Positions 1,705-39,307 of a stretch of 64,000 nucleotides of DNA are shown one piece after another (within the stretch, counting starts at the first letter, position 1; each line of letters opens with the position of its first letter). Made by a program: the position numbers and the translations under genes. The notes under the pieces are model-generated. The model did no database searches. It was not told the DNA's origin and saw nothing but the letters and a program-made list of their open reading frames with translations. The DNA lies in assembly GCF_024700885.2 (NCBI RefSeq), contig NZ_CP117016.1; one strand, written 5' to 3'. This DNA comes from Escherichia coli. Its GTDB lineage: Bacteria > Pseudomonadota > Gammaproteobacteria > Enterobacterales > Enterobacteriaceae.

Positions 1705-2019
1705 CTACACCTGCATGCTCATCACTTCCTGATACGCCGCCACCAGCTTATTACGCACCTGAATCCCCATTTGCATTGAAACTGAGGCTTTTTGCATATC
1801 GGTCATCACATCGTTTAACGCCACGCCGGGTTCACCGAGAGTGAATTTTTCTGCCTGCGTGCGGGCGGCTGTTTGTGTATCGCTTATGCGATCGAGCGCG
1901 GCGTGCAGCTGCCCGGCAAAACTAATGGTCGGTTGCGGCAGTGATTCCTGCGCACGTGCACTCATCGCCGTGGTCTGTAACTGGCTGATAACCCCTTCAA
2001 TCCCCTGTATCGCTGACAT
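1705..2019 (-). CDS. fliE: Flagellar hook-basal body complex protein FliE
   Basis: Track ORF 1705..2049; FliE-length product (104 aa) starts at the internal MSAIQGIEG; divergent from fliF. Confidence 0.9.
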
Positions 2020-2233
2020 TTTCATCTCCCGGATAATTTCTGGTAGCAAAGCCTACCAGTAAGTCAATAAGACAAAGGCGCTAAATAGCAACAAAAAAAC
2101 GGGTTTATTGGCGGATAGAAAAAAACGAAAGCACAAATAATGGGAGCGTCAATTTTTCGAGTTTGCTGACCCGGGAGTGAGTCTTGTTCCACTTTGCCAA
2201 TAACGCCGTCCATAATCAGCCACGAGGTGCGCG
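2020..2233. promoter_or_regulatory. Divergent fliE / fliFGHIJK promoter region (class 2 flagellar promoters expected)
   Basis: Intergenic region between divergent flagellar operons; individual FlhDC or sigma-28 sites not resolved by eye. Confidence 0.45.
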
Positions 2234-5558
<3,325 letters not shown>

Positions 5559-5559
<1 letters not shown>

Positions 5560-6932
5560 TGACCACGCGCCTGACTCGCTGGCTAACCACGCTGGATAAC
5601 TTTGAAGCCAAAATGGCGCAGTTGCCTGCGGTACGTCGCTATGGACGATTAACCCGCGCTACCGGGCTGGTGCTGGAAGCCACCGGATTACAATTGCCGC
5701 TCGGCGCAACCTGTGTCATTGAGCGCCAGAACGGCAGCGAAACGCACGAAGTAGAAAGCGAAGTCGTTGGCTTTAACGGTCAACGGCTGTTTTTAATGCC
5801 GCTGGAGGAAGTGGAAGGTGTCCTGCCCGGCGCGCGTGTATATGCCAAAAACATTTCGGCAGAAGGGCTGCAAAGCGGCAAGCAGTTGCCGCTCGGTCCG
5901 GCGTTATTAGGTCGTGTTCTGGACGGTAGCGGTAAACCGCTCGATGGCCTGCCCTTCCCCGATACGACGGAAACCGGTGCGCTGATTACCCCGCCATTTA
6001 ACCCGTTGCAACGTACACCGATTGAACATGTGCTGGACACCGGCGTGCGCCCAATCAATGCCCTGCTTACCGTCGGGCGCGGGCAGCGTATGGGGCTGTT
6101 TGCCGGGTCGGGCGTTGGTAAAAGTGTGCTGCTGGGGATGATGGCACGTTACACCCGCGCCGATGTCATTGTCGTGGGTTTGATTGGTGAACGTGGGCGC
6201 GAAGTAAAAGATTTTATTGAGAATATCCTCGGTGCCGAAGGGCGTGCACGCTCCGTGGTGATTGCCGCCCCGGCGGATGTCTCTCCGCTTCTGCGAATGC
6301 AAGGTGCCGCCTATGCCACGCGCATTGCCGAAGATTTTCGCGATCGTGGTCAGCATGTGTTGCTGATTATGGACTCCCTCACCCGCTACGCGATGGCCCA
6401 GCGTGAGATTGCACTGGCGATTGGCGAACCACCTGCCACTAAAGGCTATCCACCGTCGGTGTTTGCCAAATTACCGGCACTGGTCGAGCGTGCCGGAAAT
6501 GGCATTAGCGGCGGCGGATCGATTACCGCGTTTTATACCGTGCTCACCGAGGGCGATGACCAGCAGGACCCCATTGCCGACTCCGCGCGGGCCATCCTCG
6601 ACGGTCACATTGTGCTGTCTCGCCGACTGGCGGAAGCCGGGCACTATCCGGCTATCGATATTGAAGCGTCGATCAGCCGCGCAATGACGGCGTTGATCAG
6701 TGAGCAACATTACGCGCGAGTGCGCACCTTCAAACAGCTGTTGTCGAGTTTTCAGCGTAACCGCGATCTGGTTAGCGTCGGCGCGTATGCCAAAGGCAGC
6801 GATCCGATGCTCGACAAAGCCATCGCCCTGTGGCCGCAGCTGGAGGGCTATTTGCAACAAGGCATTTTTGAACGCGCGGACTGGGAAGCGTCTCTCCAGG
6901 GGCTGGAGCGTATTTTCCCGACAGTGTCATAA
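5559..6932 (+). CDS. fliI: Flagellum-specific ATPase FliI
   Basis: 457-aa ORF with Walker A motif GSGVGKS. Confidence 0.95.
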
Positions 6933-6950
6933 CCCAGGAGATAACGGCAG

Positions 6951-7394
6951 ATGGCAGAACATGGCGCGCTGGCGACCCTGAAAGATCTGGCAGAAAAAGA
7001 GGTAGAGGATGCCGCGCGCCTGCTGGGTGAAATGCGTCGCGGATGTCAGCAGGCGGAAGAACAGCTCAAAATGCTGATCGATTATCAGAATGAATATCGC
7101 AATAACCTCAATAGCGATATGAGTGCCGGGATGACCAGCAACCGCTGGATCAACTATCAGCAGTTTATCCAGACGCTGGAAAAAGCCATTACTCAGCATC
7201 GCCAGCAACTTAATCAGTGGACGCAGAAAGTTGACATTGCCCTGAACAGCTGGCGAGAAAAGAAACAACGTTTGCAGGCCTGGCAGACACTGCAGGAACG
7301 GCAATCCACGGCGGCACTGCTTGCAGAAAACCGCCTCGATCAGAAAAAGATGGATGAGTTCGCCCAGCGCGCCGCCATGAGGAAACCTGAATGA
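6951..7394 (+). CDS. fliJ: Flagellar export protein FliJ
   Basis: 147-aa coiled-coil-rich ORF in fliI-fliK synteny. Confidence 0.92.
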
Positions 7395-8518
7395 TTCGCA
7401 TAGCGCCCTTGATTACCGCTGACGTTGATATCGCCACATTGCCTGGCGACAAAGCCAGCGATGCTGCACAAGATTTTCTCGCGTTGTTGAGCGAAGCATT
7501 AACAGGCGAGGCAACAACCGACAAAGCGACTCCCCAGTTGCTGGTGGCAACAGATAAGCCCACGACAAAAGGCGAGCCGCTGGTCAGCGATATTGTTTCC
7601 GACACGCAACAAGCAGATTTACTGATCCCTGTGGATGAAACACCACCTGTCATCAACGACGAACAATCCACATCAACACCGTTAACCACCGCTCAGACGA
7701 TAACGTTGGCTGCGGCGGCTGACAACAATACGGCAAAAGACGAAAAAGCGGATGATCTGAATGAAGACGTCACCGCCAGCCTGAGTGCCCTTTTTGCGAT
7801 GTTGCCGGGTTTTGACAATACGCCCAAAGTGACTGATGCACCGTCAACCGTATTACCGACAGAGAAACCAACGCTCTTCACAAAACTGACTTCTGCGCAA
7901 CTCACAACAGCACAGCCTGATGACGCCCCCGGCACACCAGCTCAGCCATTAACACCGCTGATAGCAGAAGCCCAGAGTAAAGCGGAAGTCATCAGCACGC
8001 CTTCGTCGGTGACCGCTGCCGCCAGCCCGCTAATCACTCCACACCAGACACAGCCACTGCCCACCGTCGCCGCGCCTGTTTTGAGTGCACCGCTGGGTTC
8101 TCACGAATGGCAACAATCATTAAGCCAGCATATTTCGCTGTTCACCCGCCAGGGGCAACAAAGTGCAGAGTTGCGTCTGCACCCGCAGGATTTAGGTGAA
8201 GTGCAAATCTCCCTCAAAGTGGATGATAACCAGGCGCAAATCCAGATGGTTTCACCGCATCAGCACGTGCGCGCCGCGCTGGAAGCAGCGCTTCCGGTAC
8301 TGCGTACGCAGCTGGCGGAAAGTGGCATTCAGTTAGGGCAAAGCAACATCAGTGGCGAAAGCTTTAGTGGTCAGCAGCAGGCCGCTTCCCAGCAACAGCA
8401 AAGCCAACGCACAGCAAACCATGAACCTCTGGCGGGGGAAGACGACGATACGCTTCCGGTTCCCGTCTCTTTACAAGGGCGTGTAACAGGCAACAGCGGC
8501 GTTGATATTTTCGCCTAA
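7391..8518 (+). CDS. fliK: Flagellar hook-length control protein FliK
   Basis: 375-aa Pro/Thr/Gln-rich ORF. Confidence 0.92.
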
Positions 8519-8622
8519 CGTCAGAGGTAGCACCGTAATCCGCGTCTTTTCCCCGCTTTGTTGCGCTCAAGACGCAGGATAATTAGCCGATAAGCAGTAG
8601 CGACACAGGAAGACCGCAACAC

Positions 8623-9087
8623 ATGACTGATTACGCGATAAGCAAGAAAAGCAAGCGATCGCTTTGGATCCCGATTCTGGTATTCATTACCCTCGCGGCC
8701 TGTGCCAGCGCAGGTTACAGCTACTGGCATTCGCATCAGGTTGCCGCTGAAGACAAAGCGCAGCAACGCGTCGTGCCCTCACCGGTCTTCTATGCGCTGG
8801 ATACCTTTACGGTCAATTTGGGCGATGCGGATCGCGTGCTTTATATCGGCATAACCCTGCGCCTGAAAGATGAAGCTACCCGCTCGCGGCTGAGTGAGTA
8901 TTTGCCGGAAGTCCGTAGTCGCTTGCTGTTACTGTTTTCGCGTCAGGATGCTGCCGTACTGGCGACAGAAGAAGGCAAGAAAAACCTTATTGCCGAGATT
9001 AAAACCACACTTTCCACCCCGCTTGTTGCCGGGCAACCGAAACAGGATGTCACCGACGTGCTGTATACCGCTTTTATTCTGCGATAA
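8623..9087 (+). CDS. fliL: Flagellar basal-body-associated protein FliL
   Basis: 154-aa ORF with an N-terminal TM segment; first gene of fliLMNOPQR. Confidence 0.92.
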
Positions 9088-9091
9088 CGAC

Positions 9092-10096
9092 ATGGGCGAT
9101 AGTATTCTTTCTCAAGCTGAAATTGATGCGCTGTTGAATGGCGACAGCGAAGTCAAAGACGAACCGACAGCCAGTGTTAGCGGCGAAAGTGACATTCGTC
9201 CGTACGATCCGAATACCCAACGACGGGTTGTGCGCGAACGTTTGCAGGCGCTGGAAATCATTAATGAGCGCTTTGCCCGCCATTTTCGTATGGGGCTGTT
9301 CAACCTGTTGCGTCGTAGCCCGGATATAACCGTCGGGGCCATCCGCATTCAGCCGTACCATGAATTTGCCCGCAACCTGCCGGTGCCGACCAACCTGAAC
9401 CTTATCCATCTGAAACCGCTGCGCGGCACAGGGCTGGTGGTGTTCTCACCGAGTCTTGTGTTTATCGCCGTGGATAACCTGTTTGGCGGCGATGGACGCT
9501 TCCCGACCAAAGTGGAAGGTCGCGAGTTTACCCATACAGAACAGCGCGTCATCAACCGCATGTTAAAGCTGGCGCTTGAAGGCTATAGCGACGCCTGGAA
9601 GGCGATTAATCCGCTGGAAGTTGAGTACGTGCGTTCGGAAATGCAGGTGAAATTTACCAATATCACCACCTCGCCGAACGACATCGTGGTTAACACGCCG
9701 TTCCATGTGGAGATTGGCAACCTGACCGGCGAATTTAATATCTGCCTGCCATTCAGCATGATCGAGCCGCTACGGGAATTGTTGGTTAACCCGCCGCTGG
9801 AAAACTCGCGTAATGAAGATCAGAACTGGCGCGATAACCTGGTGCGCCAGGTGCAGCATTCACAGTTGGAGCTGGTCGCCAACTTTGCCGATATCTCGCT
9901 ACGCCTGTCGCAGATTTTAAAACTGAAACCCGGCGACGTCCTGCCGATAGAAAAACCCGATCGCATCATCGCCCATGTTGACGGCGTCCCGGTGCTGACC
10001 AGTCAGTACGGCACACTCAACGGTCAATATGCGTTACGGATAGAACATTTGATTAACCCGATTTTAAATTCTCTGAACGAGGAACAGCCCAAATGA
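9092..10096 (+). CDS. fliM: Flagellar motor switch protein FliM
   Basis: Track ORF 8894..10096; start moved to MGDSILSQAEIDALL, giving 334 aa. Confidence 0.92.
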   Translation: MGDSILSQAEIDALLNGDSEVKDEPTASVSGESDIRPYDPNTQRRVVRERLQALEIINERFARHFRMGLFNLLRRSPDITVGAIRIQPYHEFARNLPVPTNLNLIHLKPLRGTGLVVFSPSLVFIAVDNLFGGDGRFPTKVEGREFTHTEQRVINRMLKLALEGYSDAWKAINPLEVEYVRSEMQVKFTNITTSPNDIVVNTPFHVEIGNLTGEFNICLPFSMIEPLRELLVNPPLENSRNEDQNWRDNLVRQVQHSQLELVANFADISLRLSQILKLKPGDVLPIEKPDRIIAHVDGVPVLTSQYGTLNGQYALRIEHLINPILNSLNEEQPK

Positions 10097-10506
10097 GTGA
10101 CATGAATAATCCGGCCGATGACAACAACGGCGCAATGGACGATCTGTGGGCTGAAGCGTTGAGCGAACAAAAATCAACCAGCGGCAAAAGCGCTGCCGAC
10201 GCGGTGTTCCAGCAATTTGGCGGTGGTGATGTCAGCGGAACGTTGCAGGATATCGACCTGATTATGGATATTCCGGTCAAGCTGACCGTCGAGCTGGGCC
10301 GTACGCGGATGACCATCAAAGAGCTGTTGCGTCTGACGCAAGGGTCAGTCGTGGCGCTGGACGGTCTGGCGGGCGAACCGCTGGATATTCTGATCAACGG
10401 TTATTTAATCGCCCAGGGCGAAGTGGTGGTCGTTGCCGATAAATATGGCGTGCGGATCACCGATATCATTACCCCGTCCGAGCGGATGCGCCGCCTGAGC
10501 CGTTAG
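10093..10506 (+). CDS. fliN: Flagellar motor switch protein FliN
   Basis: 137-aa ORF overlapping the fliM stop. Confidence 0.95.
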   Translation: MSDMNNPADDNNGAMDDLWAEALSEQKSTSGKSAADAVFQQFGGGDVSGTLQDIDLIMDIPVKLTVELGRTRMTIKELLRLTQGSVVALDGLAGEPLDILINGYLIAQGEVVVVADKYGVRITDIITPSERMRRLSR

Positions 10507-10508
10507 TG

Positions 10509-10874
10509 ATGAATAACCACGCTACTGTGCAATCTTCCGCGCCGGTTTCTGCTGCGCCACTGCTGCAGGTGAGCGGCGCACTCATCGCCATTATTGCCCT
10601 GATCCTCGCTGCTGCCTGGCTGGTAAAACGGCTGGGATTTGCCCCGAAACGCACTGGCGTTAACGGTCTGAAAATTAGCGCCAGTGCTTCGCTGGGCGCG
10701 CGTGAACGGGTCGTGGTGGTCGATGTGGAAGATGCACGGCTGGTGCTCGGCGTTACCGCAGGGCAAATCAATCTGCTGCATAAACTTCCCCCTTCAGCAC
10801 CAACGGAAGAGATACCGCAGACCGATTTTCAGTCGGTCATGAAAAACTTGCTTAAGCGTAGCGGGAGATCCTGA
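10509..10874 (+). CDS. fliO: Flagellar export apparatus protein FliO
   Basis: Track ORF starts at GTG 10506; ATG at 10509 gives MNNHATVQ (121 aa). Confidence 0.88.
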
Positions 10875-11611
10875 TGCGTCGTTTGTTGTCTGTCGCACCT
10901 GTCCTTCTCTGGCTGGTTACGCCCCTCGCCTTCGCGCAACTGCCGGGTATCACCAGCCAGCCGCTGCCTGGCGGTGGACAAAGCTGGTCGCTCCCGGTGC
11001 AGACGCTGGTGTTCATCACCTCGTTGACGTTTATTCCGGCAATTTTACTGATGATGACCAGTTTCACCCGCATCATCATTGTTTTTGGTTTATTGCGTAA
11101 CGCGCTGGGAACGCCCTCCGCACCACCTAACCAGGTATTGCTGGGGCTGGCACTGTTTTTGACCTTTTTTATTATGTCGCCGGTGATCGACAAAATTTAT
11201 GTCGATGCGTACCAGCCATTCAGCGAAGAGAAAATCTCAATGCAGGAGGCGCTGGAAAAAGGGGCGCAGCCGCTGCGTGAGTTTATGCTGCGTCAGACCC
11301 GCGAGGCAGATTTAGGGTTGTTTGCCAGACTGGCGAATACCGGCCCGTTGCAGGGACCTGAAGCCGTGCCGATGCGCATTTTGCTCCCGGCGTACGTGAC
11401 CAGCGAGTTGAAAACCGCATTTCAGATAGGCTTCACGATTTTCATTCCGTTTTTGATTATCGACCTGGTGATTGCCAGCGTGTTGATGGCATTGGGGATG
11501 ATGATGGTCCCCCCCGCCACCATTGCTCTGCCCTTTAAACTGATGCTGTTTGTACTGGTGGATGGCTGGCAATTGCTGGTCGGTTCGCTGGCGCAGAGCT
11601 TTTACAGCTAG
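10874..11611 (+). CDS. fliP: Flagellar export apparatus protein FliP
   Basis: 245-aa polytopic membrane ORF. Confidence 0.95.
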
Positions 11612-11620
11612 AGAGGCAAA

Positions 11621-11890
11621 ATGACACCTGAATCGGTCATGATGATGGGGACTGAAGCGATGAAAGTCGCGCTGGCACTGGCTGCCCCGCTATTGTTGGT
11701 AGCGTTGGTCACGGGCCTTATCATCAGTATTTTGCAGGCCGCCACCCAGATTAACGAAATGACGCTGTCGTTTATTCCGAAAATCATCGCCGTATTTATC
11801 GCCATTATTATTGCCGGACCGTGGATGCTCAATCTGTTGCTGGATTACGTCCGCACCTTGTTCACTAACCTGCCGTATATCATCGGGTAG
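11621..11890 (+). CDS. fliQ: Flagellar export apparatus protein FliQ
   Basis: 89-aa two-TM ORF. Confidence 0.95.
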
Positions 11891-11898
11891 CCCGTACA

Positions 11899-12684
11899 AT
11901 GTTGCAGGTGACAAGCGATCAATGGCTTTCCTGGCTAAGTCTGTACTTCTGGCCGTTACTGCGCGTGCTGGCGCTCATTTCTACCGCGCCAATTCTGAGC
12001 GAACGCAGCGTGCCGAAACGGGTAAAACTGGGTCTGGCAATGATGATCACGTTCGCCATTGCCCCATCATTACCTGCCAACGATGTTCCTGTTTTTTCGT
12101 TCTTTGCTCTGTGGCTGGCCGTGCAGCAGATCCTGATCGGCATTGCGCTTGGTTTTACCATGCAATTTGCCTTTGCCGCTGTGCGAACCGCTGGTGAAAT
12201 TATCGGTCTGCAAATGGGGCTGTCATTTGCGACGTTTGTCGATCCGGCCAGCCATCTCAATATGCCCGTTTTAGCGCGTATTATGGATATGCTGGCGTTA
12301 CTGCTGTTCCTGACATTTAACGGTCATTTATGGTTGATTTCACTGCTGGTCGATACCTTTCACACCCTGCCAATTGGTGGCGAACCGTTGAACAGCAATG
12401 CGTTTCTGGCACTCACCAAAGCAGGGAGTTTGATTTTCCTTAACGGGCTGATGCTGGCGTTACCGCTCATTACTCTGCTGCTGACCCTGAATCTGGCATT
12501 AGGTTTACTGAATCGTATGGCCCCGCAATTATCCATTTTTGTTATTGGATTTCCATTAACTCTGACTGTCGGTATCTCTTTAATGGCGGCATTAATGCCG
12601 TTAATTGCGCCTTTTTGCGAACATTTATTCAGTGAGATGTTTAATTTGCTGGCTGATATTATTAGTGAATTGCCATTAATATAA
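11899..12684 (+). CDS. fliR: Flagellar export apparatus protein FliR
   Basis: 261-aa polytopic membrane ORF; last gene of the operon. Confidence 0.95.
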
Positions 12685-12709
12685 TTCCGTAACGTTTATC
12701 ATGTTATCC

Positions 12710-12723
12710 TAAGGATTATCCGA
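12710..12723. promoter_or_regulatory. Candidate RcsAB box upstream of rcsA
   Basis: TAAGGATTATCCGA resembles the RcsAB box consensus TaAGaatatTCctA (recalled); rcsA is known to be autoregulated through such a box. Confidence 0.45.
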
Positions 12724-12973
12724 AAAATAATACCTACGAACATCTTCCAGGATACTCCTGTAGCGAAATATTTGTTTTAAGCTCACTCACATATCGCAAC
12801 ATTTACTTTACTTTAAGACAATTCCAGGCAAATTATACAACACTTTACGGGATAGTAAGTCCGCCTGAAAAATCGCGAGAGTGGCGCATTAGGTGACCCA
12901 TGTTGTTCCGTTTAGTCATGATGAAATATTCAGGTAAGGGGAATTATCGTTACGCATTGAGTGAGGGTATGCC

Positions 12974-13597
12974 ATGTCAACGATTATTATGGATTTATGT
13001 AGTTACACCCGACTAGGTTTAACCGGGTATCTGTTGAGTAGAGGGGTTAAAAAAAGAGAAATCAACGACATTGAAACCGTTGATGACCTTGCCATAGCTT
13101 GTGATTCACAGCGCCCTTCAGTGGTGTTTATTAATGAGGACTGTTTCATCCACGATGCTTCTAACAGTCAGCGTATCAAGCTCATCATTAATCAACATCC
13201 CAATACGTTATTTATCGTTTTTATGGCAATTGCCAATGTTCATTTTGATGAATATCTATTGGTCAGAAAAAATTTATTGATCAGTTCTAAATCGATTAAA
13301 CCGGAATCTCTCGACGATATCCTTGGCGATATTCTGAAAAAAGAGACAACGATAACCTCGTTTTTAAATATGCCGACGTTATCATTGAGCCGAACCGAAT
13401 CGAGTATGTTGCGAATGTGGATGGCAGGTCAGGGAACCATTCAAATCTCCGACCAAATGAATATCAAAGCCAAGACCGTTTCATCGCATAAAGGTAATAT
13501 TAAACGTAAGATCAAAACGCATAATAAACAGGTTATCTACCATGTCGTCCGACTGACGGATAATGTGACTAATGGTATTTTTGTCAACATGCGCTAA
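12974..13597 (+). CDS. rcsA: Capsule synthesis co-activator RcsA (LuxR-type HTH)
   Basis: 207-aa AT-rich ORF with C-terminal LuxR-type HTH; synteny with dsrB and dsrA. Confidence 0.92.
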
Positions 13598-14498: not shown

Positions 14499-17038
<2,540 letters not shown>

Positions 17039-27707: not shown

Positions 27708-27839
27708 GAAAATAATATGCCATAAATCATATGTTATAGAAACAGCCTGGTTCATTACAAAATTGTAATGCTGCTGTAAGGTTACCCTGGACGTTTTTTC
27801 GCTATCCTCAAAACTCATTCACATGACAAGGATATAAAC

Positions 27840-30053: not shown

Positions 30054-30580
30054 TGAACTGCACCCCAAATGTTGGACATAATCTGACATCTGAAGGTGCA
30101 GTTTATGAAACATTCATTTGAAGTAAAACTTGCCGCTGTAAATCATTACCTGGCTGGTCATGCAGGCATCATTTCTACGGCAAAACTCTTTCAACTTTCT
30201 CACACCAGCCTCTCACACTGGATTAATCTTTTTCTTCTTCACGGTCCTCGGGCACTGGATTGCAGACACAAGCGTAGCTATTCTCCTGAAGATAAACTTT
30301 GCGTGGTTCTTTATGCTCTCGGGCATTCTGAGTCTCTACCCCGGGTAGCTGCCCGGTTTAATATTCCCAGCCACAACACGGTTAAAAACTGGATAAAAGG
30401 CTACCGCAAATCTGGTAATGAGGCCTTTATCAGGCGCAGGAAGGAGAAAAGCATGACCCGTTCTGATGATACCCATGAAAACGAGGCAAACATGACGCCG
30501 GAAGAGATGAAGAATGAGCTGCGTTATCTTCGCGCAGAAAATGCATATCTGAAAGCCATGCAGGAGCATCTCCTGGAAAA

Positions 30581-31485
<905 letters not shown>

Positions 31486-32344: not shown

Positions 32345-32432
32345 TTTTTTTGCGCTGACTTCAATTATTTAACAGAACAGTGCCTGGTAGTAACGACAAT
32401 AATTTACCAAGACAAATAAATAAGACAAACTC

Positions 32433-32466
32433 AGACACGCTCATGCTTGAGACGTGTCTTTTTTAT
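32433..32466 (+). terminator. Rho-independent terminator after zinT
   Basis: GACACG / CGTGTC stem followed by TTTTTTATTAT. Confidence 0.7.
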
Positions 32467-33013
32467 TATGTCTGTAGAAAAAAACTGAGAAAACGGCGAA
32501 CAATAAATACACAACTCGCCAATACAGACTGGCTGCGCCAATGTCTCCAGGAGCAAGTCATCTGTCATGGTAAAGCTAACCAGAAATATAGGTTAATTTT
32601 GGTATTTAAACCTTTTTTACTTGTTAGTATGATACAAAGGCTTTCAAAAAAGCTGGGAAATTCAACAACTCTTGGAAATTATGGACTTTGTCCCGCGGCT
32701 TTAATCTGACGGCCGCGTTCCTTTTTTTGCTCAATTATTGACCCCTTCTCTATGCAACTTCAGTTCCCACCACCAACTTTGCGGCAGCTTCGTAGGATCA
32801 ATGTCTAAAAGAATAATGGTGACCGATAAGAAAACGACTGAATAACTGCAGATTTTCGCTCGAAACCTTCCTGTCAGATCCATAGCGAATCAAGTGCTGA
32901 ATGTCACAGTATCGAACAGAAAACAGTGACGATCTAACCCTTCAAGAATATTCTACGATTGTTCTGTTTAGGAAAAGCAAGGCGGGAAGTCGGGAGATAA
33001 GTCATTGATAAAG

Positions 33014-33075
33014 TGGCGGAGAGAGGGGGATTTGAACCCCCGGTAGAGTTGCCCCTACTCCGGTTTTCGAGACCG
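33014..33075 (-). other. Truncated tRNA-Ser(CGA) serU, 3' 62 nt only; prophage attachment-site remnant
   Basis: Minus strand reads CGGTCTCGAAAACCGGAGTAGGGGCAACTCTACCGGGGGTTCAAATCCCCCTCTCTCCGCCA (anticodon loop to CCA end of serU as recalled); the 5' part (D-arm and acceptor 5' strand) is absent. Confidence 0.85.
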
Positions 33076-33376
33076 ATGATACAGAGTCGAAAAATCAAAG
33101 AGTTAAAAATTTTTCTTGGAATAAATGTCTTAAAATCGTACAAGAAAAATCAATGAATTACATAACATTAAAGAAGAATATTCCAAGCCTTCTTGAGGCT
33201 ACCACCTGTTTTCAGGTGTCATTCAGACGTGATTTGCCCCAGATTGGGAAAGCACGCTTTTTTCTCAGCTTATTCCGTTTTGCCTGTGTGTTGAATAATT
33301 CCACTGCAGTTATATAAAATCGGTAACGTCTGGAAATCATTCAATACTCGCACTATCGAAAGTTCACCAGCCAACC

Positions 33377-33416
33377 GCAGCACGTTCTTGCATACGACGT
33401 GCTGCGGTTTTCTTTA
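33377..33416 (+). repeat. Palindromic hairpin element, copy B (near-identical to 1295-1335)
   Basis: GCAGCACGTTCTTGCATACGACGTGCTGC followed by GGTTTTCTTTATG; about 28 of 31 core positions match copy A. Confidence 0.5.
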
Positions 33417-33566
33417 TGATTTATGCACAATGGACAATTTGAAATTATTGATGATTGAATGGTGCATCGTTTTCTGAACCTACACTGATTTTTTGGTATA
33501 GCCTTGCCTAGCCAGTCTTACCGGATCAAACCCTTCGCTATTGCAATACTAACCAAAATCATCAAT

Positions 33567-33595
33567 TTGACAGCGATTAACCAAAATAATAGTAT
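33567..33595 (+). promoter_or_regulatory. Candidate sigma-70 promoter of the cargo diguanylate cyclase
   Basis: Perfect -35 TTGACA, 17-bp spacer, -10 TAGTAT, about 70 bp upstream of the ATG. Confidence 0.4.
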
Positions 33596-33665
33596 ACTAT
33601 CACCAGTAAGAAATTATCGTTATTTGTAGCGATACATATTATATATATCATTCTCAGGTGCGTAC

Positions 33666-34997
33666 ATGATTATCAACCAGGTACCTATAAAAATAAAAAT
33701 CTTCATCTTTTTATTTTCATGCATCTCTATTATATTTTTGTTACTGCATGAAAATAATGGAATATACATAACACAAACAACACAAATAAGTTATAGTGTT
33801 TTCATTATTGGGCTTTTTTTCATAAACCTGATGATTTTTATTTTTCTATTGCTTTACTATGTTTCTAATCAGAGACAAAGTTATCTCTTAATTCTTTCAT
33901 TCGCGTTTTTGAGCAACACGTATTATTTATTAGAAGTGGCTATTATTTCTTTATCTCCGTTAGGTAACGATTTATCTACAATCTATCAGAAATCAAATAA
34001 TATCGCAATATATTATCTATTCCGTCAGTTCAGCTTTATATCTATAATCTTTCTGGCTGTTTATTCCACCAATGTTAAAAATAAAAGTGTTTTAGAAGAT
34101 AAAAGAAACATAATAATTGTTGTTTTGTCAATATTAATTCTTTTTATTACTCCGTTTGTAGCAAAAAATCTAAGCAGTGACAATATAAAATATAGTCTTA
34201 ATATTATACAATACTCGCTGAATCGTCATTTGTCGACGTGGAATATCGTGTACACCAAAATAATATCAGTATTTTGGCTTGTATTACTTATCAGCTCATG
34301 CATCAGCATACGTAATTACTCAAAAATATGGTTGTGTATAATACTTATTAGTATAGTGTCAGTATGCAATAATCTAATTTTATTGTATTTTATTGATAAA
34401 TCCCATCCTGCATGGTACATGACAAAATTTCTTGAATTGATATCAATGATTTATATCATTTCAACACTCATGTATTATGTTTTTAGGAAATTAAATCATG
34501 CTAATCATATGGCAATTCATGATCCACTAACGAATACATACAATAGAAGATACTTTATTGACTCATTGAAGAACATATCAAAACACCATGATTTCTCAGT
34601 AATAATGTTAGATATTGACAGTTTCAAAAGCATCAATGACAAATGGGGGCATCATATGGGTGATCAAGTCATAGTAATGGTTACCAGAATAATAAAAAAA
34701 TCCATCAGGAAAGAGGATATATTAGGGCGCTTAGGCGGTGAGGAGTTCGGTATTATCATTAAAGGTAATACTCAAAAGCTCTTGCTATCAATTGCAGAGC
34801 GAATCAGAAAAAACATTGAAGAGCAATGCTCGGAAAAATTATTATCGCATGGACCTGAGAAAATAACTGTCAGTATTGGTTGCTTTACTTCAAAAGAGAA
34901 TAATCTCAGTCCATCTGAAATGTTAGTCAATGCCGACAAAGCGTTATATCAAGCCAAAAGAACCGGAAAAAACAAGGTGATAATTCACTCAAAATAA
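33666..34997 (+). CDS. Membrane-anchored diguanylate cyclase (multi-TM sensor domain plus GGDEF), DgcX-like prophage cargo
   Basis: 443-aa ORF; very AT-rich (I/L/F/N/K/Y-rich) N-terminal membrane domain; C-terminal GGDEF domain with RLGGEEFG active site and upstream RKED I-site-like motif. Confidence 0.85.
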   Translation: MIINQVPIKIKIFIFLFSCISIIFLLLHENNGIYITQTTQISYSVFIIGLFFINLMIFIFLLLYYVSNQRQSYLLILSFAFLSNTYYLLEVAIISLSPLGNDLSTIYQKSNNIAIYYLFRQFSFISIIFLAVYSTNVKNKSVLEDKRNIIIVVLSILILFITPFVAKNLSSDNIKYSLNIIQYSLNRHLSTWNIVYTKIISVFWLVLLISSCISIRNYSKIWLCIILISIVSVCNNLILLYFIDKSHPAWYMTKFLELISMIYIISTLMYYVFRKLNHANHMAIHDPLTNTYNRRYFIDSLKNISKHHDFSVIMLDIDSFKSINDKWGHHMGDQVIVMVTRIIKKSIRKEDILGRLGGEEFGIIIKGNTQKLLLSIAERIRKNIEEQCSEKLLSHGPEKITVSIGCFTSKENNLSPSEMLVNADKALYQAKRTGKNKVIIHSK

Positions 34998-35017
34998 ACA
35001 CCTTTTTAAAATACAGC

Positions 35018-35050
35018 CCCAATAAACTGCAGAATATTATCCCATATAAT
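35018..35050. terminator. Inverted-repeat hairpin between convergent cyclase gene and tail-fibre cassette
   Basis: CTGCAGAATATTAT-cccat-ATAATATCCTGCAG, 14-bp arms with one mismatch. Confidence 0.5.
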
Positions 35051-35070
35051 ATCCTGCAGTTCGTAATGCA

Positions 35071-35199
35071 CTATTCGATAATGGGTACTGTTGGCCATTC
35101 AATATCCGGTGCAGTTGTTGTATTAACACGGTTCAGCAACACCCGATACTTCTTCCAGGCTTCCAGCAACGAGGTTTCTTCCTCCGTTGCATATACAGC
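35071..35199 (-). pseudogene. 3' remnant of a lambda-type tail-fibre assembly gene (tfa)
   Basis: Encodes [42 protein letters not shown], matching the recalled C-terminus of lambda Tfa; no Tfa-like N-terminus upstream in frame. Confidence 0.6.
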
Positions 35200-35209
35200 C
35201 CACCTTTTT

Positions 35210-35518
35210 TCACCCACGATTAACCAACAGCCAGACCAGCAGACACGCCACCACCGGCACAGCAAAATCCATCAGGCTTGCCACATCCCACGCGCGCGGA
35301 TCAAAACCGCCCCACCACGGCATATTCATTCGCTTGCCATGCCCGAACATTTCGATCCAGCGATATTCTGCCTGGGTGTGTTCACGCGCAATGAAGAACG
35401 TACAACCGGCTATCGCCCCGTAAGCCCAGTTCCCGGTAAAAAGACCAATCAGTAGCTGCGCAGCCACAGCACAAAGCGCATGAAGGAAAGGTGTTATATC
35501 CATTTTCATCCCACCCAA
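35210..35518 (-). CDS. Hypothetical small membrane protein (phage cargo)
   Basis: 102-aa track ORF with two hydrophobic segments; no family recognised. Confidence 0.45.
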
Positions 35519-35545
35519 TAAAACGGGGCGCTCGGCCCCTTAATA

Positions 35546-36586
35546 TTATTTAGACGCAAGCGCCGCATCAATTGCAGATAATCTTTGTCTTAATTCTGCG
35601 TTTTCTTCTTCCAGTGCTGTTATTCTGTCGTCTGACTCTCTGGCTACCTGAACAAGCAAGCCAGTAACACCAGAATAATCTACTGTGTAATAACGTTCAC
35701 CTTCTTCACCTTCCGATCCGCTCGCACCGTCCTGATATTTCATTACGGAACCTACAACTTCTGGGATTGCTTCCAGAGCTTCCTGTGCAATGACACCAGC
35801 ATAGGGCATACCGTTTTCTTTAAGCGTGTATGTATAGCCGTTCATTTTACGGATGCGGTCGGTTGCATTATCGATCACCTGAATGTTGTCTTTCAGATCC
35901 CGGTCGGAATGCTGGTTAAATGCGGTGGCATGACATGCACCATTAACGCTTAACATATAGGTGTTATCGGTATTTTTCTGCGCATAGAACATATAAGCGC
36001 CACCATCAACACCGACTTCATAAACAACAGGACGGCTGGAGTTGCCCCACAATTGAGCAGTAACACCAGCATAAGCGGTTCCCTGTGTGTTTAATGTCAT
36101 GGTTGACCCATGATTGGCATATTTGATCTGTAATGTGTCGGTGTAATCAAATTTAATAAGCGCGTTACTTCCACGCTTGCTGTATGACATAAGGCAGTTA
36201 CCCATTTTGAGGTATCCGCTGTCACCGGGAAAAATCATCGTACCGCCATAAAGGTTGGTAAAGTCCCAGCAAATGTTTGTCCCGTTATCGTTCAGGTTAA
36301 GGCGCGCCATTGCGTTACCTGGACTGTCTATCCATTTTTTGAGGTATAGTTCGCAATACGCATCCTCAACACCTGCCGTCCTGTGAGTTGAGCGGAGTTT
36401 TCTCCCAAATATAGCTCCGCTAGTTGGCAATACCTGCTGATACCATGAAGCAGACCAGTCACCAACGATTTCATCTTTGCTGTCTACATATAATTTTGTT
36501 GCGTAGCTTCCTTGATCGTTTTTTAATTTGCTAACGTCGGATTTTAGCGTTTTGATGTCATCAGGAATTACTGTCGATGTAGCCAT
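35546..36586 (-). CDS. Tail-fibre / tailspike protein with C-terminal intramolecular-chaperone (S74-like) domain
   Basis: 346-aa ORF; C-terminal region with YTYTLKENG...GVIAQE...YSGVTGLLV and a coiled-coil tail resembles self-cleaving chaperone domains of phage fibres. Confidence 0.65.
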   Translation of the reverse strand: MATSTVIPDDIKTLKSDVSKLKNDQGSYATKLYVDSKDEIVGDWSASWYQQVLPTSGAIFGRKLRSTHRTAGVEDAYCELYLKKWIDSPGNAMARLNLNDNGTNICWDFTNLYGGTMIFPGDSGYLKMGNCLMSYSKRGSNALIKFDYTDTLQIKYANHGSTMTLNTQGTAYAGVTAQLWGNSSRPVVYEVGVDGGAYMFYAQKNTDNTYMLSVNGACHATAFNQHSDRDLKDNIQVIDNATDRIRKMNGYTYTLKENGMPYAGVIAQEALEAIPEVVGSVMKYQDGASGSEGEEGERYYTVDYSGVTGLLVQVARESDDRITALEEENAELRQRLSAIDAALASK

Positions 36587-36595
36587 TTTTCTTCC

Positions 36596-36877
36596 TCACA
36601 TCCAGCCACGAAGTTGATGCTCAACAGCAACCACGTATTCATCGAATAATGACGATATTTGCGAATCATTAATGATGCGCACGTTTACAAAATATCCGTC
36701 TTCCTTAACACATACCGGTTCGCCATCTTCAGTCAGTTCTCCGGTTTCTTTGTACACGTTACCTATCACGTCAATAAGAATATCATCCTGCATCGACTCG
36801 TCATCATAATAGCCAGTACTCTCCATAAAGGCCGAAAAGTCGGCCCTGTCGGCAAATTTGAGTGTTAAATCTTTCAT
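36596..36877 (-). CDS. Hypothetical acidic protein in the tail-fibre cassette
   Basis: 93-aa track ORF tightly coupled to neighbours; no family recognised. Confidence 0.45.
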   Translation of the reverse strand: MKDLTLKFADRADFSAFMESTGYYDDESMQDDILIDVIGNVYKETGELTEDGEPVCVKEDGYFVNVRIINDSQISSLFDEYVVAVEHQLRGWM

Positions 36878-39249
36878 TAGATTGACTCCCCCACCTGAGC
36901 ATCAGTCAATGCCTTGTGCCATATTCTGAAATTCCTGACATGACCAAATAAATGACGTAACCCGGCTGTAGTCTGGCCTCCAATACGGATAATTGCGGTG
37001 TTCTGAATACAGGACCATGTGGTTTTTGTTTCGCTGGATATATGCCCGTTACTTACTGAGCACGTAGACTGCTCTGACTTTACACGCATCCCCATAACCA
37101 TTTTTTCAAGCGATGCGTTTTCGTTTACCCGTCTGTTAGCTCCTCCAATATCGCAATAAGGAAATCCGTCGTAATCTGTTGAACGACCGAAGCCAAGAAT
37201 AATAGCCGCTCCGGTTTGATGACCGCCGGTATCAAAAACACGTGGCGCTGCATTTGGCGTTTTATACCAGTTCTTATGTACCTCACAAAGAACCGTAAAA
37301 GGAAGATTATAAAGATTATTCTTAATTGGAACTGTAACTATATCGCTTGCGCGGGTCGCCGCCGTCGCTCCTGATATAATAAAAGATGATACACAAGGCC
37401 CATCTTCTACTTGTGGGGTGGCCAGATAAATATAGTCACCAGATACGGTTGCCCCGCTCTGCTTAGGAGAATACTGTATCTGAGAGCCTATTTTAAACTC
37501 CCCATCAATTGCCTGAATTGTTGCCTCTGCAAAAATCCATCCGGTAGCTTCGTCCTTTCTGACTCTCGCTGTAATTCTTGAGGCAGCACCGCCTGTCATA
37601 TTAATTTCAAGCGTTTGTGTATCAATATACGCATCACCAAGAAAAGTTGTTGCGCTACCGTCATATTTATCAAACCGGATACGCAACCTTACCTGCAGTT
37701 CTGTTTTAAAACGACATGAGGTTGTCACGTGTTTATTATCGCCTGAGACATCAACTGACTTTGTTGCAGCAATTGATGCCATATTAATGGCTGAGGTTTG
37801 CCCAATCAGAGAATCGTTGCAGACAAACTTTCCATAGGTAAAACCAAAATTATCCGTCCCTGTTTCGGGCACATCCATATTTGACGATCGCCCCCAACTG
37901 GCAGGGCTTTCCGAATTGAGCATGTAGTTTGTTCTTTGCCCCTCAATAAGCAGGCCATCACGTTCAAATCGTGGCTCGTCAATGGCAGCCTCTGTCAGCA
38001 CACCAGATTTGTTAATATAGGTTGCTTTCGATGCACGTTTAAACTTAACAATCTTGTCGCCAGGCATCGTTATTTCATCGTCACCAATAACAATTTTTTT
38101 ATATGACGGCGAAAAGCCCGTAATCATATCCAGTGAATCGTTAAACGGTATCCACACATCAGGCAGTGGCTGTAAGACATATTTATACGGCTCTGCTGCC
38201 TGACTTGCATACTCTCTGGCTGCGTCTTCACTTGCTTTAGCTGCTGTCTGGCTTGCTGCCGATGCTTTCGCCGAGTTCGCCGCTGCAGTCTCGCTTGTCT
38301 TTGCATTGGTTTCACTGGTTTTTGCCGCTTTTTGACTGTTGGCTGATGCAGTGGCAGAAGCAGCCGCCGCGCTTGCAGAACCAGCTGCCGCGCTCTCGCT
38401 TTGGGCTGCTGCAACCTGGCTGTTTTTCGCCGCAGTTTCGCTGGCTTTGGCATTCGTTTCGCTGGTCTTCGCTGCCGTCTGGCTGGACTTTGCGTTAGTT
38501 TCACTCGTCTTCGCTGCTTTCTGGCTGTTAGCCGCAGCAGTTGCTGCTCCAGCTGCTGAAGTCGCAGAACCGGCTGCTGCGCTCTCGCTCTCAGCTGCTG
38601 CAGTCTGGCTGTTTTTCGCCGCAGTTTCACTGGCTTTGGCATTCGTTTCGCTGGCCTTCGCTGCCGTCTGGCTGGACTTTGCGTTGGTTTCGCTCGTCTT
38701 TGCTGCTGTCTCGCTATTTTTCGCGTTGGTTTCTGATTTTTTAGCTGCTGTCGCGGAATTTGCCGATGCAGTCTGCGAGGCCGCTGCCGCCTGTGCGCTG
38801 TTAGCTGCATTCGTTTCTGAGTTTTTCGCCGCGTTCTTCGATGATGCCGCTGCAGTTTCGGATTTCTTTGCCGCCGCTGCGCTCTGAGAGGCGGCTTCAG
38901 CGTTGCGTGCCGCTTCTTCCACCATTACCTCAAAACGACGCAATGCCTCCGGCATGACATCCTCTTCCGTCATGGCACCGAGAAAATCATTCAGCGTGCC
39001 TGGTCTGGAACCTTCATAGACGGTAATGGTCCCGGCATGTGAAGGCGGAAAACCTTCAACCAGCAGGGTGACGCTGTACTGGCCATACTCAACATCCATG
39101 CTGTAACGCCCGGCTTCATCCGGATTTTCAGAGGCCACCGTATTCACCAGTACCGTGGTGCTGTTACGCTTTGCTTTGAGCTGAATAGTGCAGTTCTGTA
39201 TTGGTTTTCCTGCACCGTCTTTCAGCACGCCTGAAATCTGTACTGCCAT
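36877..39249 (-). CDS. stf: Side tail fibre protein, lambda Stf-like N-terminus with Ala/Ser/Thr-rich repeat shaft
   Basis: N-terminus MAVQISGVLKDGAGKPIQNCTIQLKA resembles lambda Stf; track ORF starts two codons earlier at 39255. Confidence 0.8.
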   Translation of the reverse strand: MAVQISGVLKDGAGKPIQNCTIQLKAKRNSTTVLVNTVASENPDEAGRYSMDVEYGQYSVTLLVEGFPPSHAGTITVYEGSRPGTLNDFLGAMTEEDVMPEALRRFEVMVEEAARNAEAASQSAAAAKKSETAAASSKNAAKNSETNAANSAQAAAASQTASANSATAAKKSETNAKNSETAAKTSETNAKSSQTAAKASETNAKASETAAKNSQTAAAESESAAAGSATSAAGAATAAANSQKAAKTSETNAKSSQTAAKTSETNAKASETAAKNSQVAAAQSESAAAGSASAAAASATASANSQKAAKTSETNAKTSETAAANSAKASAASQTAAKASEDAAREYASQAAEPYKYVLQPLPDVWIPFNDSLDMITGFSPSYKKIVIGDDEITMPGDKIVKFKRASKATYINKSGVLTEAAIDEPRFERDGLLIEGQRTNYMLNSESPASWGRSSNMDVPETGTDNFGFTYGKFVCNDSLIGQTSAINMASIAATKSVDVSGDNKHVTTSCRFKTELQVRLRIRFDKYDGSATTFLGDAYIDTQTLEINMTGGAASRITARVRKDEATGWIFAEATIQAIDGEFKIGSQIQYSPKQSGATVSGDYIYLATPQVEDGPCVSSFIISGATAATRASDIVTVPIKNNLYNLPFTVLCEVHKNWYKTPNAAPRVFDTGGHQTGAAIILGFGRSTDYDGFPYCDIGGANRRVNENASLEKMVMGMRVKSEQSTCSVSNGHISSETKTTWSCIQNTAIIRIGGQTTAGLRHLFGHVRNFRIWHKALTDAQVGESI
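38340..38720. repeat. In-frame tandem duplication (about 189-bp unit, 2 copies) inside stf
   Basis: Near-identical DNA blocks about 38341-38530 and 38530-38720 encoding repeated KTSETNAKSSQTAAK-type shaft repeats. Confidence 0.7.
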
Positions 39250-39307
39250 ATTCACTCCACAAATAAAAAAGGCGCCATTTCTGGCGCCCGTATTTGGGTT
39301 ATAAAAC

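Follow-up and report, generated by a model that had tools for sequence, protein, structure and literature searches.

The diguanylate cyclase gene dgcX as prophage cargo at the serU site of Escherichia coli

The AT-rich GGDEF gene described here is very probably dgcX, a known accessory diguanylate cyclase (DGC) gene found in Escherichia only, which moves among E. coli strains at the ends of lambdoid prophages; in this case a prophage of that kind, about 44 kb long and inserted at serU, carries it beside the tail-fibre genes as lysogenic-conversion cargo. It lies in a window of 64 kb, a term that we use for the whole stretch of E. coli DNA analysed. DgcX is a strongly expressed source of c-di-GMP, and a link has been made between it and biofilm behaviour in the O104:H4 outbreak lineage; because the gene adds such a source to its host, recognising it matters for predicting biofilm and motility traits. 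Our result confirms a known gene and refines the published picture without changing it. What we add is the serU context, which is a less common site for this gene, a census over four chromosomal sites, the placement of the gene inside the prophage, and the bounds of a cassette together with examples of its empty sites.

Identification of the window gene as dgcX

Under the interval marked by the first-pass annotation of this DNA, the list of open reading frames holds a single long frame, which encodes 443 aa (Table 1). The annotation had described a 443-aa GGDEF protein with an intact GGEEF active site, an I-site-like RKED motif and a multi-pass N-terminal sensor domain, and our searches bear out each of these features. 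Pfam places a MASE4 domain (PF17158) at aa 40-274 (model positions 4-237 of 239, E 1e-34), in agreement with the 7-8 or so hydrophobic segments that a hydropathy scan finds in the N-terminal 273 aa, and a full-length GGDEF domain (PF00990) at aa 283-437 (model positions 1-161 of 161, E 5e-44). The GGDEF model TIGR00254 reaches 161.9 bits, where its cut-off is 37.4; NCBIfam holds no DgcX-specific model, and this domain model alone clears its cut-off. GGEEF lies at aa 357-361 and RKED at aa 348-351, and the two are set apart by the canonical I-site spacing, with R348-K-E-D351 followed by the five residues ILGRL and then by G357. The start that the annotation gave is not that of the gene: at 33567 the predicted -35 hexamer begins, and the coding sequence itself begins at 33666.

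Table 1. Positions of dgcX and of the features around it in the 64-kb window
Feature	Position	Strand	Basis or content
Truncated serU, 3' 62 nt of tRNA-Ser; copy of the att core at the integrase-distal end	33014..33075	-	K-12 alignment
Phage-side att arm, specific to the serU integration type, 35% GC	33076..33312	.	Absent from K-12
dgcX cassette, about 1.9 kb, common to four chromosomal contexts	33313..35190	+	Five-locus alignment
Terminator-like hairpin with T-run, upstream of the dgcX promoter	33373..33412	+	Folding
Predicted sigma-70 promoter, TTGACA-17-TAGTAT	33567..33595	+	Consensus scan, 10/12
dgcX coding sequence	33666..34997	+	ATG start, 443 aa; MASE4 sensor domain and GGDEF diguanylate cyclase domain
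Inverted repeat between the convergent dgcX and tfa remnant	35026..35060	.	Folding
tfa 3' remnant, 120 bp, borne by the cassette	35072..35191	-	PGAP: tail fiber assembly protein missing N-terminus
Prophage tail-fibre module	35210..39255	-	102-aa ORF (phrog_1443), tail-fibre gene, 93-aa ORF, tail-fibre gene

The annotation had suggested a likeness to DgcX and had proposed aligning the protein to DgcX and DgcT and classifying its N terminus among the Pfam MASE families. The suggestion was right, and comparison with published sequences goes beyond likeness: we identify the gene as dgcX itself, which is already known and characterised. This identification follows from four observations. First, the gene differs from dgcX of strain E24377A by 7 nt, and the protein by 3 of its 443 aa (99% identity); it differs by a single aa from the dgcX allele in the sitD context. 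In E24377A the gene sits between ybhB and a prophage tail fibre assembly gene, and this strain was given as a carrier at lambda attB by Richter et al., 2014 (PMC4287979), who named dgcX. These authors described DgcX as having an intact A-site, an RxxD motif five residues upstream of it and a membrane N-terminus of about 270 aa as in YcdT and YeaI, and they reported that the gene always adjoins lambdoid prophage DNA. Second, Cimdins-Ahne et al., 2023 (PMC10459773), who classed DgcX as a MASE4-GGDEF protein, mutated E359 and E360, and the glutamates of GGEEF in the window protein are E359 and E360 in the same numbering. Third, the reverse primer used for the published dgcX::lacZ fusion, dgcX-u-18, has an annealing part that matches the window exactly at 33657-33678, a stretch that spans the ATG. 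Fourth, identity to the K-12 paralogues is low (35% to DgcT and 37% to CdgI, the closest K-12 relative). An orthologue of DgcT or CdgI was considered and ruled out on these identities and on locus, as those genes lie elsewhere (pga and yeaH-dgcJ, respectively) and are paralogues.

Position of dgcX in a lambdoid prophage at serU

All 64 kb of the window match E. coli MLI114 at 100% identity (NZ_CP117013.1, 2153715-2217714, reverse complement), and our gene map around dgcX is the RefSeq/PGAP annotation of that record. Along the map come the fli operons, rcsA and dgcQ, then hprRS, hiuH, msrPQ, a copy of IS1397 and zinT, and then dgcX. Beyond dgcX, on the opposite strand, lie the tfa remnant, the 102-aa ORF (phrog_1443, 35210-35518), the tail-fibre genes, one of which carries a prophage N-terminal domain, and gpJ; further in, the lambdoid prophage has its structural, lysis and regulatory modules in full. 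The convergence of dgcX with the tail-fibre genes, as first annotated, is therefore real, with dgcX on the plus strand and both the tfa remnant and the tail-fibre module on the minus strand. The annotation had also drawn attention to flagellar genes in the same window. The fli operons are indeed there, but their proximity to dgcX is a coincidence of the chromosome map, and c-di-GMP affects motility in trans.

The insertion at serU lies between zinT and mtfA. In MLI114 the far end of the prophage is about 44 kb away, outside the window, and has an integrase gene (annotated as frameshifted) beside an intact serU. At the near end, collinearity with K-12 extends over the 3' 62 nt of serU and breaks off beyond 33075. 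This serU fragment matches the corresponding 3' portion of the gene without a difference, both in K-12 and in the intact copy on the integrase side in MLI114; judged from these alignments, the 62-nt repeat at the two prophage ends is what phages that integrate at the 3' end of a tRNA gene usually leave behind. ARAGORN called no tRNA at the junction, since only a fragment of serU is present there. As the match to K-12 ends at 33075, dgcX starts 590 bp inside the junction, close to the 600 bp or so that had been annotated. Next to the serU fragment comes the phage-side att arm, which we did not find in the lambda attB, argW or sitD contexts of dgcX. The arm also has an ORF (33153-33317); it matched no family, and we consider it unlikely to be coding. 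The description of the gene as phage-delivered thus stands as a statement about its history, since dgcX is prophage cargo, but not necessarily about present mobility, because the integrase is annotated as frameshifted.

A shared cassette, its empty sites and its predicted promoter

Alignment of five loci (serU, lambda attB in two strains, argW and sitD/Rac) delimits a cassette in which a terminator hairpin, the promoter, dgcX, a second hairpin and the tfa 3' remnant follow one another. The left boundary, at about 33313, is common to 5/5 loci; the right boundary varies within the tfa 3' end and falls at 35190 in the window. Relative to E24377A, identity is 98.9% over window 33312-35190.

Both hairpins were found by folding, and a rule-based terminator scan missed them because of its rules for loop and T-run. 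In the upstream hairpin, the stem is 14 bp long and rich in G+C (-24.7 kcal/mol, z = -4.9), and UUUUCUUUAU comes after it; the diverged argW allele largely keeps the two arms, each of which has base changes there, and we infer that this hairpin shields dgcX from read-through. The inverted repeat downstream of dgcX folds on either strand (plus strand, -15.8 kcal/mol, z = -5.6; minus strand, -26.6 kcal/mol, z = -6.3) and is kept in all five aligned loci, and it is possibly a terminator shared by the two convergent genes. The tfa remnant corresponds in alignment to the 3' end of the gene in E24377A and GDSC2239PM, where tfa is complete, and it is about 95% identical to 48.5-kb records of phage-lambda length in a plasmid collection, two of which annotate tfa there. 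That tfa is cut to 120 bp in the window is explained by the resident phage, which has a different tail-fibre module.

The same phage sequences also occur without the cassette. In pOHT76-1_1, the terminator element follows a dinI-like gene, and a complete tfa adjoins them. In WP8-S17-ESBL-08, which has a prophage at serU, junction and arm are 97% identical up to window 33380, and the terminator element leads directly to the 102-aa ORF, with the cassette absent at the position of dgcX. We found the serU junction together with its arm in 600 E. coli genomes, of which the majority lack dgcX at serU (64 have it there). From these counts and the empty sites, dgcX is variable cargo placed between conserved phage sequences. 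The annotated status of the gene as acquired prophage cargo is upheld by its location on the phage side of the att core and by a related serU prophage that lacks it at the same position.

The near-consensus promoter that had been predicted stands in part. It is the best of 14 promoter-like sites in the region, but its -35 hexamer is altered in the diverged argW allele (94%), and the region is not enriched in such sites (14 versus 12.0 +/- 3.4 in shuffles), so that the promoter is to be read as a consensus match. The hexamer TATACT (33593-33598) overlaps it and is invariant in every allele, argW included; in our view it may be the kind of -10 element that sigma-S favours. The predicted promoter falls within the -412..+18 fragment of the published dgcX reporter, whose activity lends it indirect support.

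Distribution and origin of dgcX

We found dgcX in 770 of 5426 complete E. coli genomes (14%). With context-specific queries, 588 of the 5426 genomes have it at lambda attB, flanked by ybhB, 86 at the argW island beside an alpha/beta hydrolase gene, 64 at serU (8% of copies) and 43 beside sitD at the Rac/uspF site; the four contexts sum to 781, above the 770 carriers, because some genomes have two copies. The 86 argW copies equal in number the copies in the band of 90-95% identity, and the one argW copy examined falls there. In the literature that we searched, the sites given for dgcX are lambda attB, Rac/uspF and argW-dsdC (PMC4287979 and PMC10459773). We found no mention of serU in this literature, which is a weak negative given its incomplete coverage.

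Searches of 50,697 phage records by blastn and tblastn returned no dgcX and only unrelated GGDEF domains of less than 40% identity, which leaves the gene without a known carrier among isolated virions. Among the plasmids of PLSDB the gene was never matched, only the two cassette ends, and it was these matches that pointed to the empty site in pOHT76-1_1. A scan of one genome per species (100,044 species) gave two close matches, one in an E. coli strain and one in a 2.5-kb contig of a 'Bacillota' MAG. As this contig has the E. coli cassette at 99% identity, it is most likely mis-binned, and no donor outside Escherichia emerged from the scan. Protein relatives with a named source are from Escherichia (51-85% identity, with E. 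albertii at 52%) and Citrobacter (about 41-43%), a distribution consistent with the restriction of DgcX to Escherichia reported in the literature.

The AT-rich composition that the first-pass annotation had called far from the E. coli norm is evident: the coding sequence has 29.6% GC (26.7% in the MASE4 part and 34.6% in the GGDEF part), against 49.6% in the host flank and 53.1% in the remaining prophage. Low GC is partly a trait of the family, since dgcT (38.6%) and cdgI (38.5%) are likewise below the genome average, and it does not point to a distant donor, given the graded series of relatives in Escherichia and Citrobacter.

Proposed function and alternative explanations

Published work and GGDEF biochemistry suggest how the gene would act. 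DgcX would be a membrane protein that dimerises and condenses two GTP into c-di-GMP; its output would be limited by c-di-GMP bound at the I-site, and the MASE4 domain would gate its activity in response to a signal. A lysogen would transcribe dgcX from the gene's own promoter with sigma-70 and sigma-S polymerase, read-through being kept off by the upstream terminator, and the extra c-di-GMP would favour cellulose-dependent biofilm and lessen flagellar motility in the host. In published experiments, overexpression of DgcX raised cellulose and repressed motility, and both effects needed E360 of GGEEF; deletion of the gene raised motility slightly.

Whom this would serve is a separate matter. The main beneficiary might be the prophage itself, with constitutive c-di-GMP giving the lysogen matrix and slower flagella and with dgcX acting as a superinfection-exclusion or fitness moron instead of a virulence factor; matrix and slow flagella would then cut the adsorption of competing phages or hold lysogens in biofilms. 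The gene does sit at the usual location of lambdoid lysogenic-conversion genes, beside the tail-fibre genes, with its own predicted promoter and an upstream terminator, it is retained even in decayed prophages, and several PHROG families and phage records contain GGDEF domains. Retention in decayed prophages, however, fits a benefit to the host equally well, and none of the PADLOC defence models matched the DgcX protein (0 families at E <= 0.01). On balance we consider a benefit mainly to the prophage unlikely.

A related proposal is that the cassette of about 1.9 kb is a genuine phage moron that recombines among lambdoid phages of at least four integration specificities and is kept because it benefits the prophage. 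Recombination would take place at two conserved phage sequences, the terminator element and the tfa 3' end, and constitutive c-di-GMP would lower superinfection through matrix and reduced flagellar rotation. A moron would be expected in packaged phage genomes, and neither a DNA match nor a full-length protein match was present in the 50,697 phage records. Taken as a whole, with the prophage benefit included, this proposal has a small chance of being right.

It is improbable that dgcX is silent or non-functional in the window strain, whether through xenogeneic silencing of AT-rich DNA or through a D112N change in the sensor. Three observations would fit such a loss, namely the low GC content of the coding sequence, the asparagine at position 112 of the window allele, where four other dgcX alleles compared and both K-12 paralogues, DgcT and CdgI, have aspartate (conserved MASE4 motif SNDIAIYY), and the minor phenotype of the published deletion in strain Fec101. 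Against this, the reading frame is intact and identical copies exist in several genomes. Moreover, of the 412 upstream bp in the published fusion, 353 are present in the window at about 99% identity, and that region drove very high reporter expression in K-12: the dgcX fusion had the highest expression of any E. coli DGC, dependent on both RpoD and RpoS, and very strong where that of dgcT was very weak (PMC4287979).

Richter et al. had suggested that dgcX hitchhikes by specialised transduction (PMC4287979), which would make it bacterial DNA from beside the attachment site, moved by phages that excise imprecisely. Two of our results are in line with this, as no sequenced phage among the 50,697 records carries dgcX and many of the prophages adjoining it are degraded. 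The order of sequences at the attachment sites argues the other way. In the serU case, the att core separates zinT from dgcX. In E24377A, at lambda attB, ybhB is followed by the core TTAGTATAAAAAAGC, then by about 270 bp of lambda homology and then by the upstream region of dgcX; the core is the reverse complement of lambda 27724-27738, and the 270 bp or so match the lambda P arm and adjacent b-region DNA. At both sites, an att core and a phage-specific arm thus separate the host genes from dgcX, and this order places the gene inside the prophage, at the lambda b-region position between tfa and attP. In addition, the cassette is bordered by the tfa 3' end and a phage terminator element and not by host sequence, and a single cassette is common to four att specificities, for which recombination between phages is a simpler explanation than repeated aberrant excision. 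The placement inside the prophage therefore argues against the original idea of specialised transduction, which we regard as very unlikely.

The residues of the catalytic domain point to an active enzyme. The alignment of the GGDEF domain with PleD (1w25; E 6e-25) runs over its whole length, and on careful comparison the active site, for which a disruption would have spoken against a cyclase, is intact. The catalytic residues of PleD are kept (D316 of the DID metal site, N324 and D333 for guanine binding, GGEEF at 357-361 and K431), RKED aligns with the PleD I-site RAID, and both arginines of AERIR, R379 and R381, are kept; the one difference noted is K435, which stands at the position of PleD R446. 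These residues are those predicted for a diguanylate cyclase of the active type that bears an I-site. That DgcX is a degenerate GGDEF protein that binds c-di-GMP without making it, like the paralogue CdgI (YeaI), is extremely unlikely: CdgI is the nearest K-12 relative and a lysine does replace PleD R446, but the A-site reads GGEEF in DgcX and EGEVF in CdgI, the metal-binding and guanine-binding residues are in place, and the published phenotypes depend on E360.

Comparison with known systems

The reading that we prefer, in which dgcX is an accessory DGC gene of Escherichia carried as lysogenic-conversion cargo at serU, can be set beside three known systems. The closest is DgcX of O104:H4, of EAEC 55989 and of ETEC E24377A, which shares with the window protein the MASE4-GGDEF architecture, the GGEEF motif with E359/E360 and the RxxD spacing. 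The published loci also share the upstream region, a convergent tfa gene or remnant 74 bp downstream and the position at the end of a lambdoid prophage. The window differs from them in its site, serU instead of attB, Rac/uspF or argW-dsdC, in the D112N change of its allele and in a tfa neighbour of only 120 bp.

DgcT (YcdT) and CdgI (YeaI) have the same two-domain architecture and keep the MASE4 motifs and the I-site. Unlike DgcX, they belong to the K-12 core genome and are chromosomal, outside prophages, and the A-site of CdgI is degenerate.

The third comparison is with the morons of lambdoid phages and with the sitABCD cluster that adjoins dgcX at the Rac site. Examples of such moron or lysogenic-conversion genes are lom and bor of lambda, which lie between the tail-fibre genes and att. 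Like such elements, dgcX is self-contained, with a predicted promoter and a terminator-like hairpin, is present in some prophages and absent from others, and lies near att; the cassette also shares with lambdoid morons a composition unlike that of the surrounding phage and a place at the end of the late operon. The difference lies in the cargo, which is a surface protein or a transporter in the lambdoid morons and a second-messenger synthase in the case of dgcX.

Prophage genes around the dgcX cassette

Features discussed here that have defined positions are collected in the table below. Two prophage features lie at the edges of the cassette that carries dgcX, the MASE4-GGDEF cyclase gene of the serU prophage. 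The first, flanked by the tail-fibre gene on one side and the tfa remnant on the other, is an ORF for a hydrophobic 102-aa product that belongs to phrog_1443 (function unknown) and had no match in NCBIfam or PADLOC. We found the same gene immediately after the terminator element in the dgcX-less serU prophage of WP8-S17-ESBL-08. The second is a 72-bp stretch that RefSeq labels a pseudogene fragment of a ‘capsid protein’. It occupies the same place as the conserved terminator element at the cassette's left end, and this call is probably spurious. In the large tail-fibre gene, SETNAK/SETAAK-type near-repeats rich in Ala, Ser and Thr follow one another over a long stretch and produce a strong AT skew (about -0.6), especially in window 38000-39000.

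Positions of features in and around the dgcX prophage (window coordinates unless stated)
Feature	Position	Strand
Integrase remnant adjoining fliE	1541-1687	
fli operons	about 1705-12684	
dgcQ	15329-17023	-
IS1397 (IS3 family)	30054-31485	
Interval lacking yodB	32345-32566	
‘Capsid protein’ fragment	33316-33387	-
dgcX codon 112	33999-34001	
102-aa ORF	35210-35518	-
Tail-fibre gene	36877-39255	-
IraM-like gene	62370-62705	+
Two prophage tRNA genes	63617-63693 and 63800-63875	-
Tyrosine integrase (outside window)	NZ_CP117013.1 2140310-2141360; MLI114 region (L003) 12311-13361	
sitABCD, GDSC2239PM (L010)	2096-5545	

Mobility and other cargo

At the far end of the prophage, the tyrosine integrase adjoins the intact serU and is annotated as frameshifted; the prophage that carries dgcX may have lost the ability to excise. 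The prophage also encodes an IraM-like anti-adaptor, a stabiliser of RpoS, and this gene may be relevant to dgcX because dgcX expression is partly RpoS-dependent (PMC4287979). Of its two tRNA genes, the second was called tRNA-Met (CAT) by ARAGORN, whereas RefSeq lists it as tRNA-Ile; the two calls would be reconciled if the CAT anticodon were modified so that it reads AUA.

The cassette in other contexts

At the Rac/uspF site of GDSC2239PM, the sitABCD iron/manganese transporter genes lie directly upstream of the dgcX cassette, so that two cargo modules are stacked at one prophage end. The E. coli cassette is also present (99% identity) in a 2.5-kb contig of a ‘Bacillota bacterium’ MAG (JAEWTL010000008.1), most likely an E. 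coli contig placed in the wrong genome bin.

Comparison with K-12

Relative to K-12, the host DNA beside the prophage carries IS1397 between msrQ and zinT and is missing yodB: the zinT-serU flank interval consists of 222 unrelated bp where K-12 has 995 bp including yodB. The core-genome diguanylate cyclase gene dgcQ (52% GC), a cellulose regulator, is located 17 kb from dgcX, and the window thus holds two cyclase genes. Within dgcX itself, alignment places an N at residue 112 of the window allele, inside the conserved MASE4 motif SNDIAIYY, whereas D occupies the position in four other dgcX alleles as well as in the K-12 paralogues DgcT and CdgI; N112 could alter signal sensing by DgcX.
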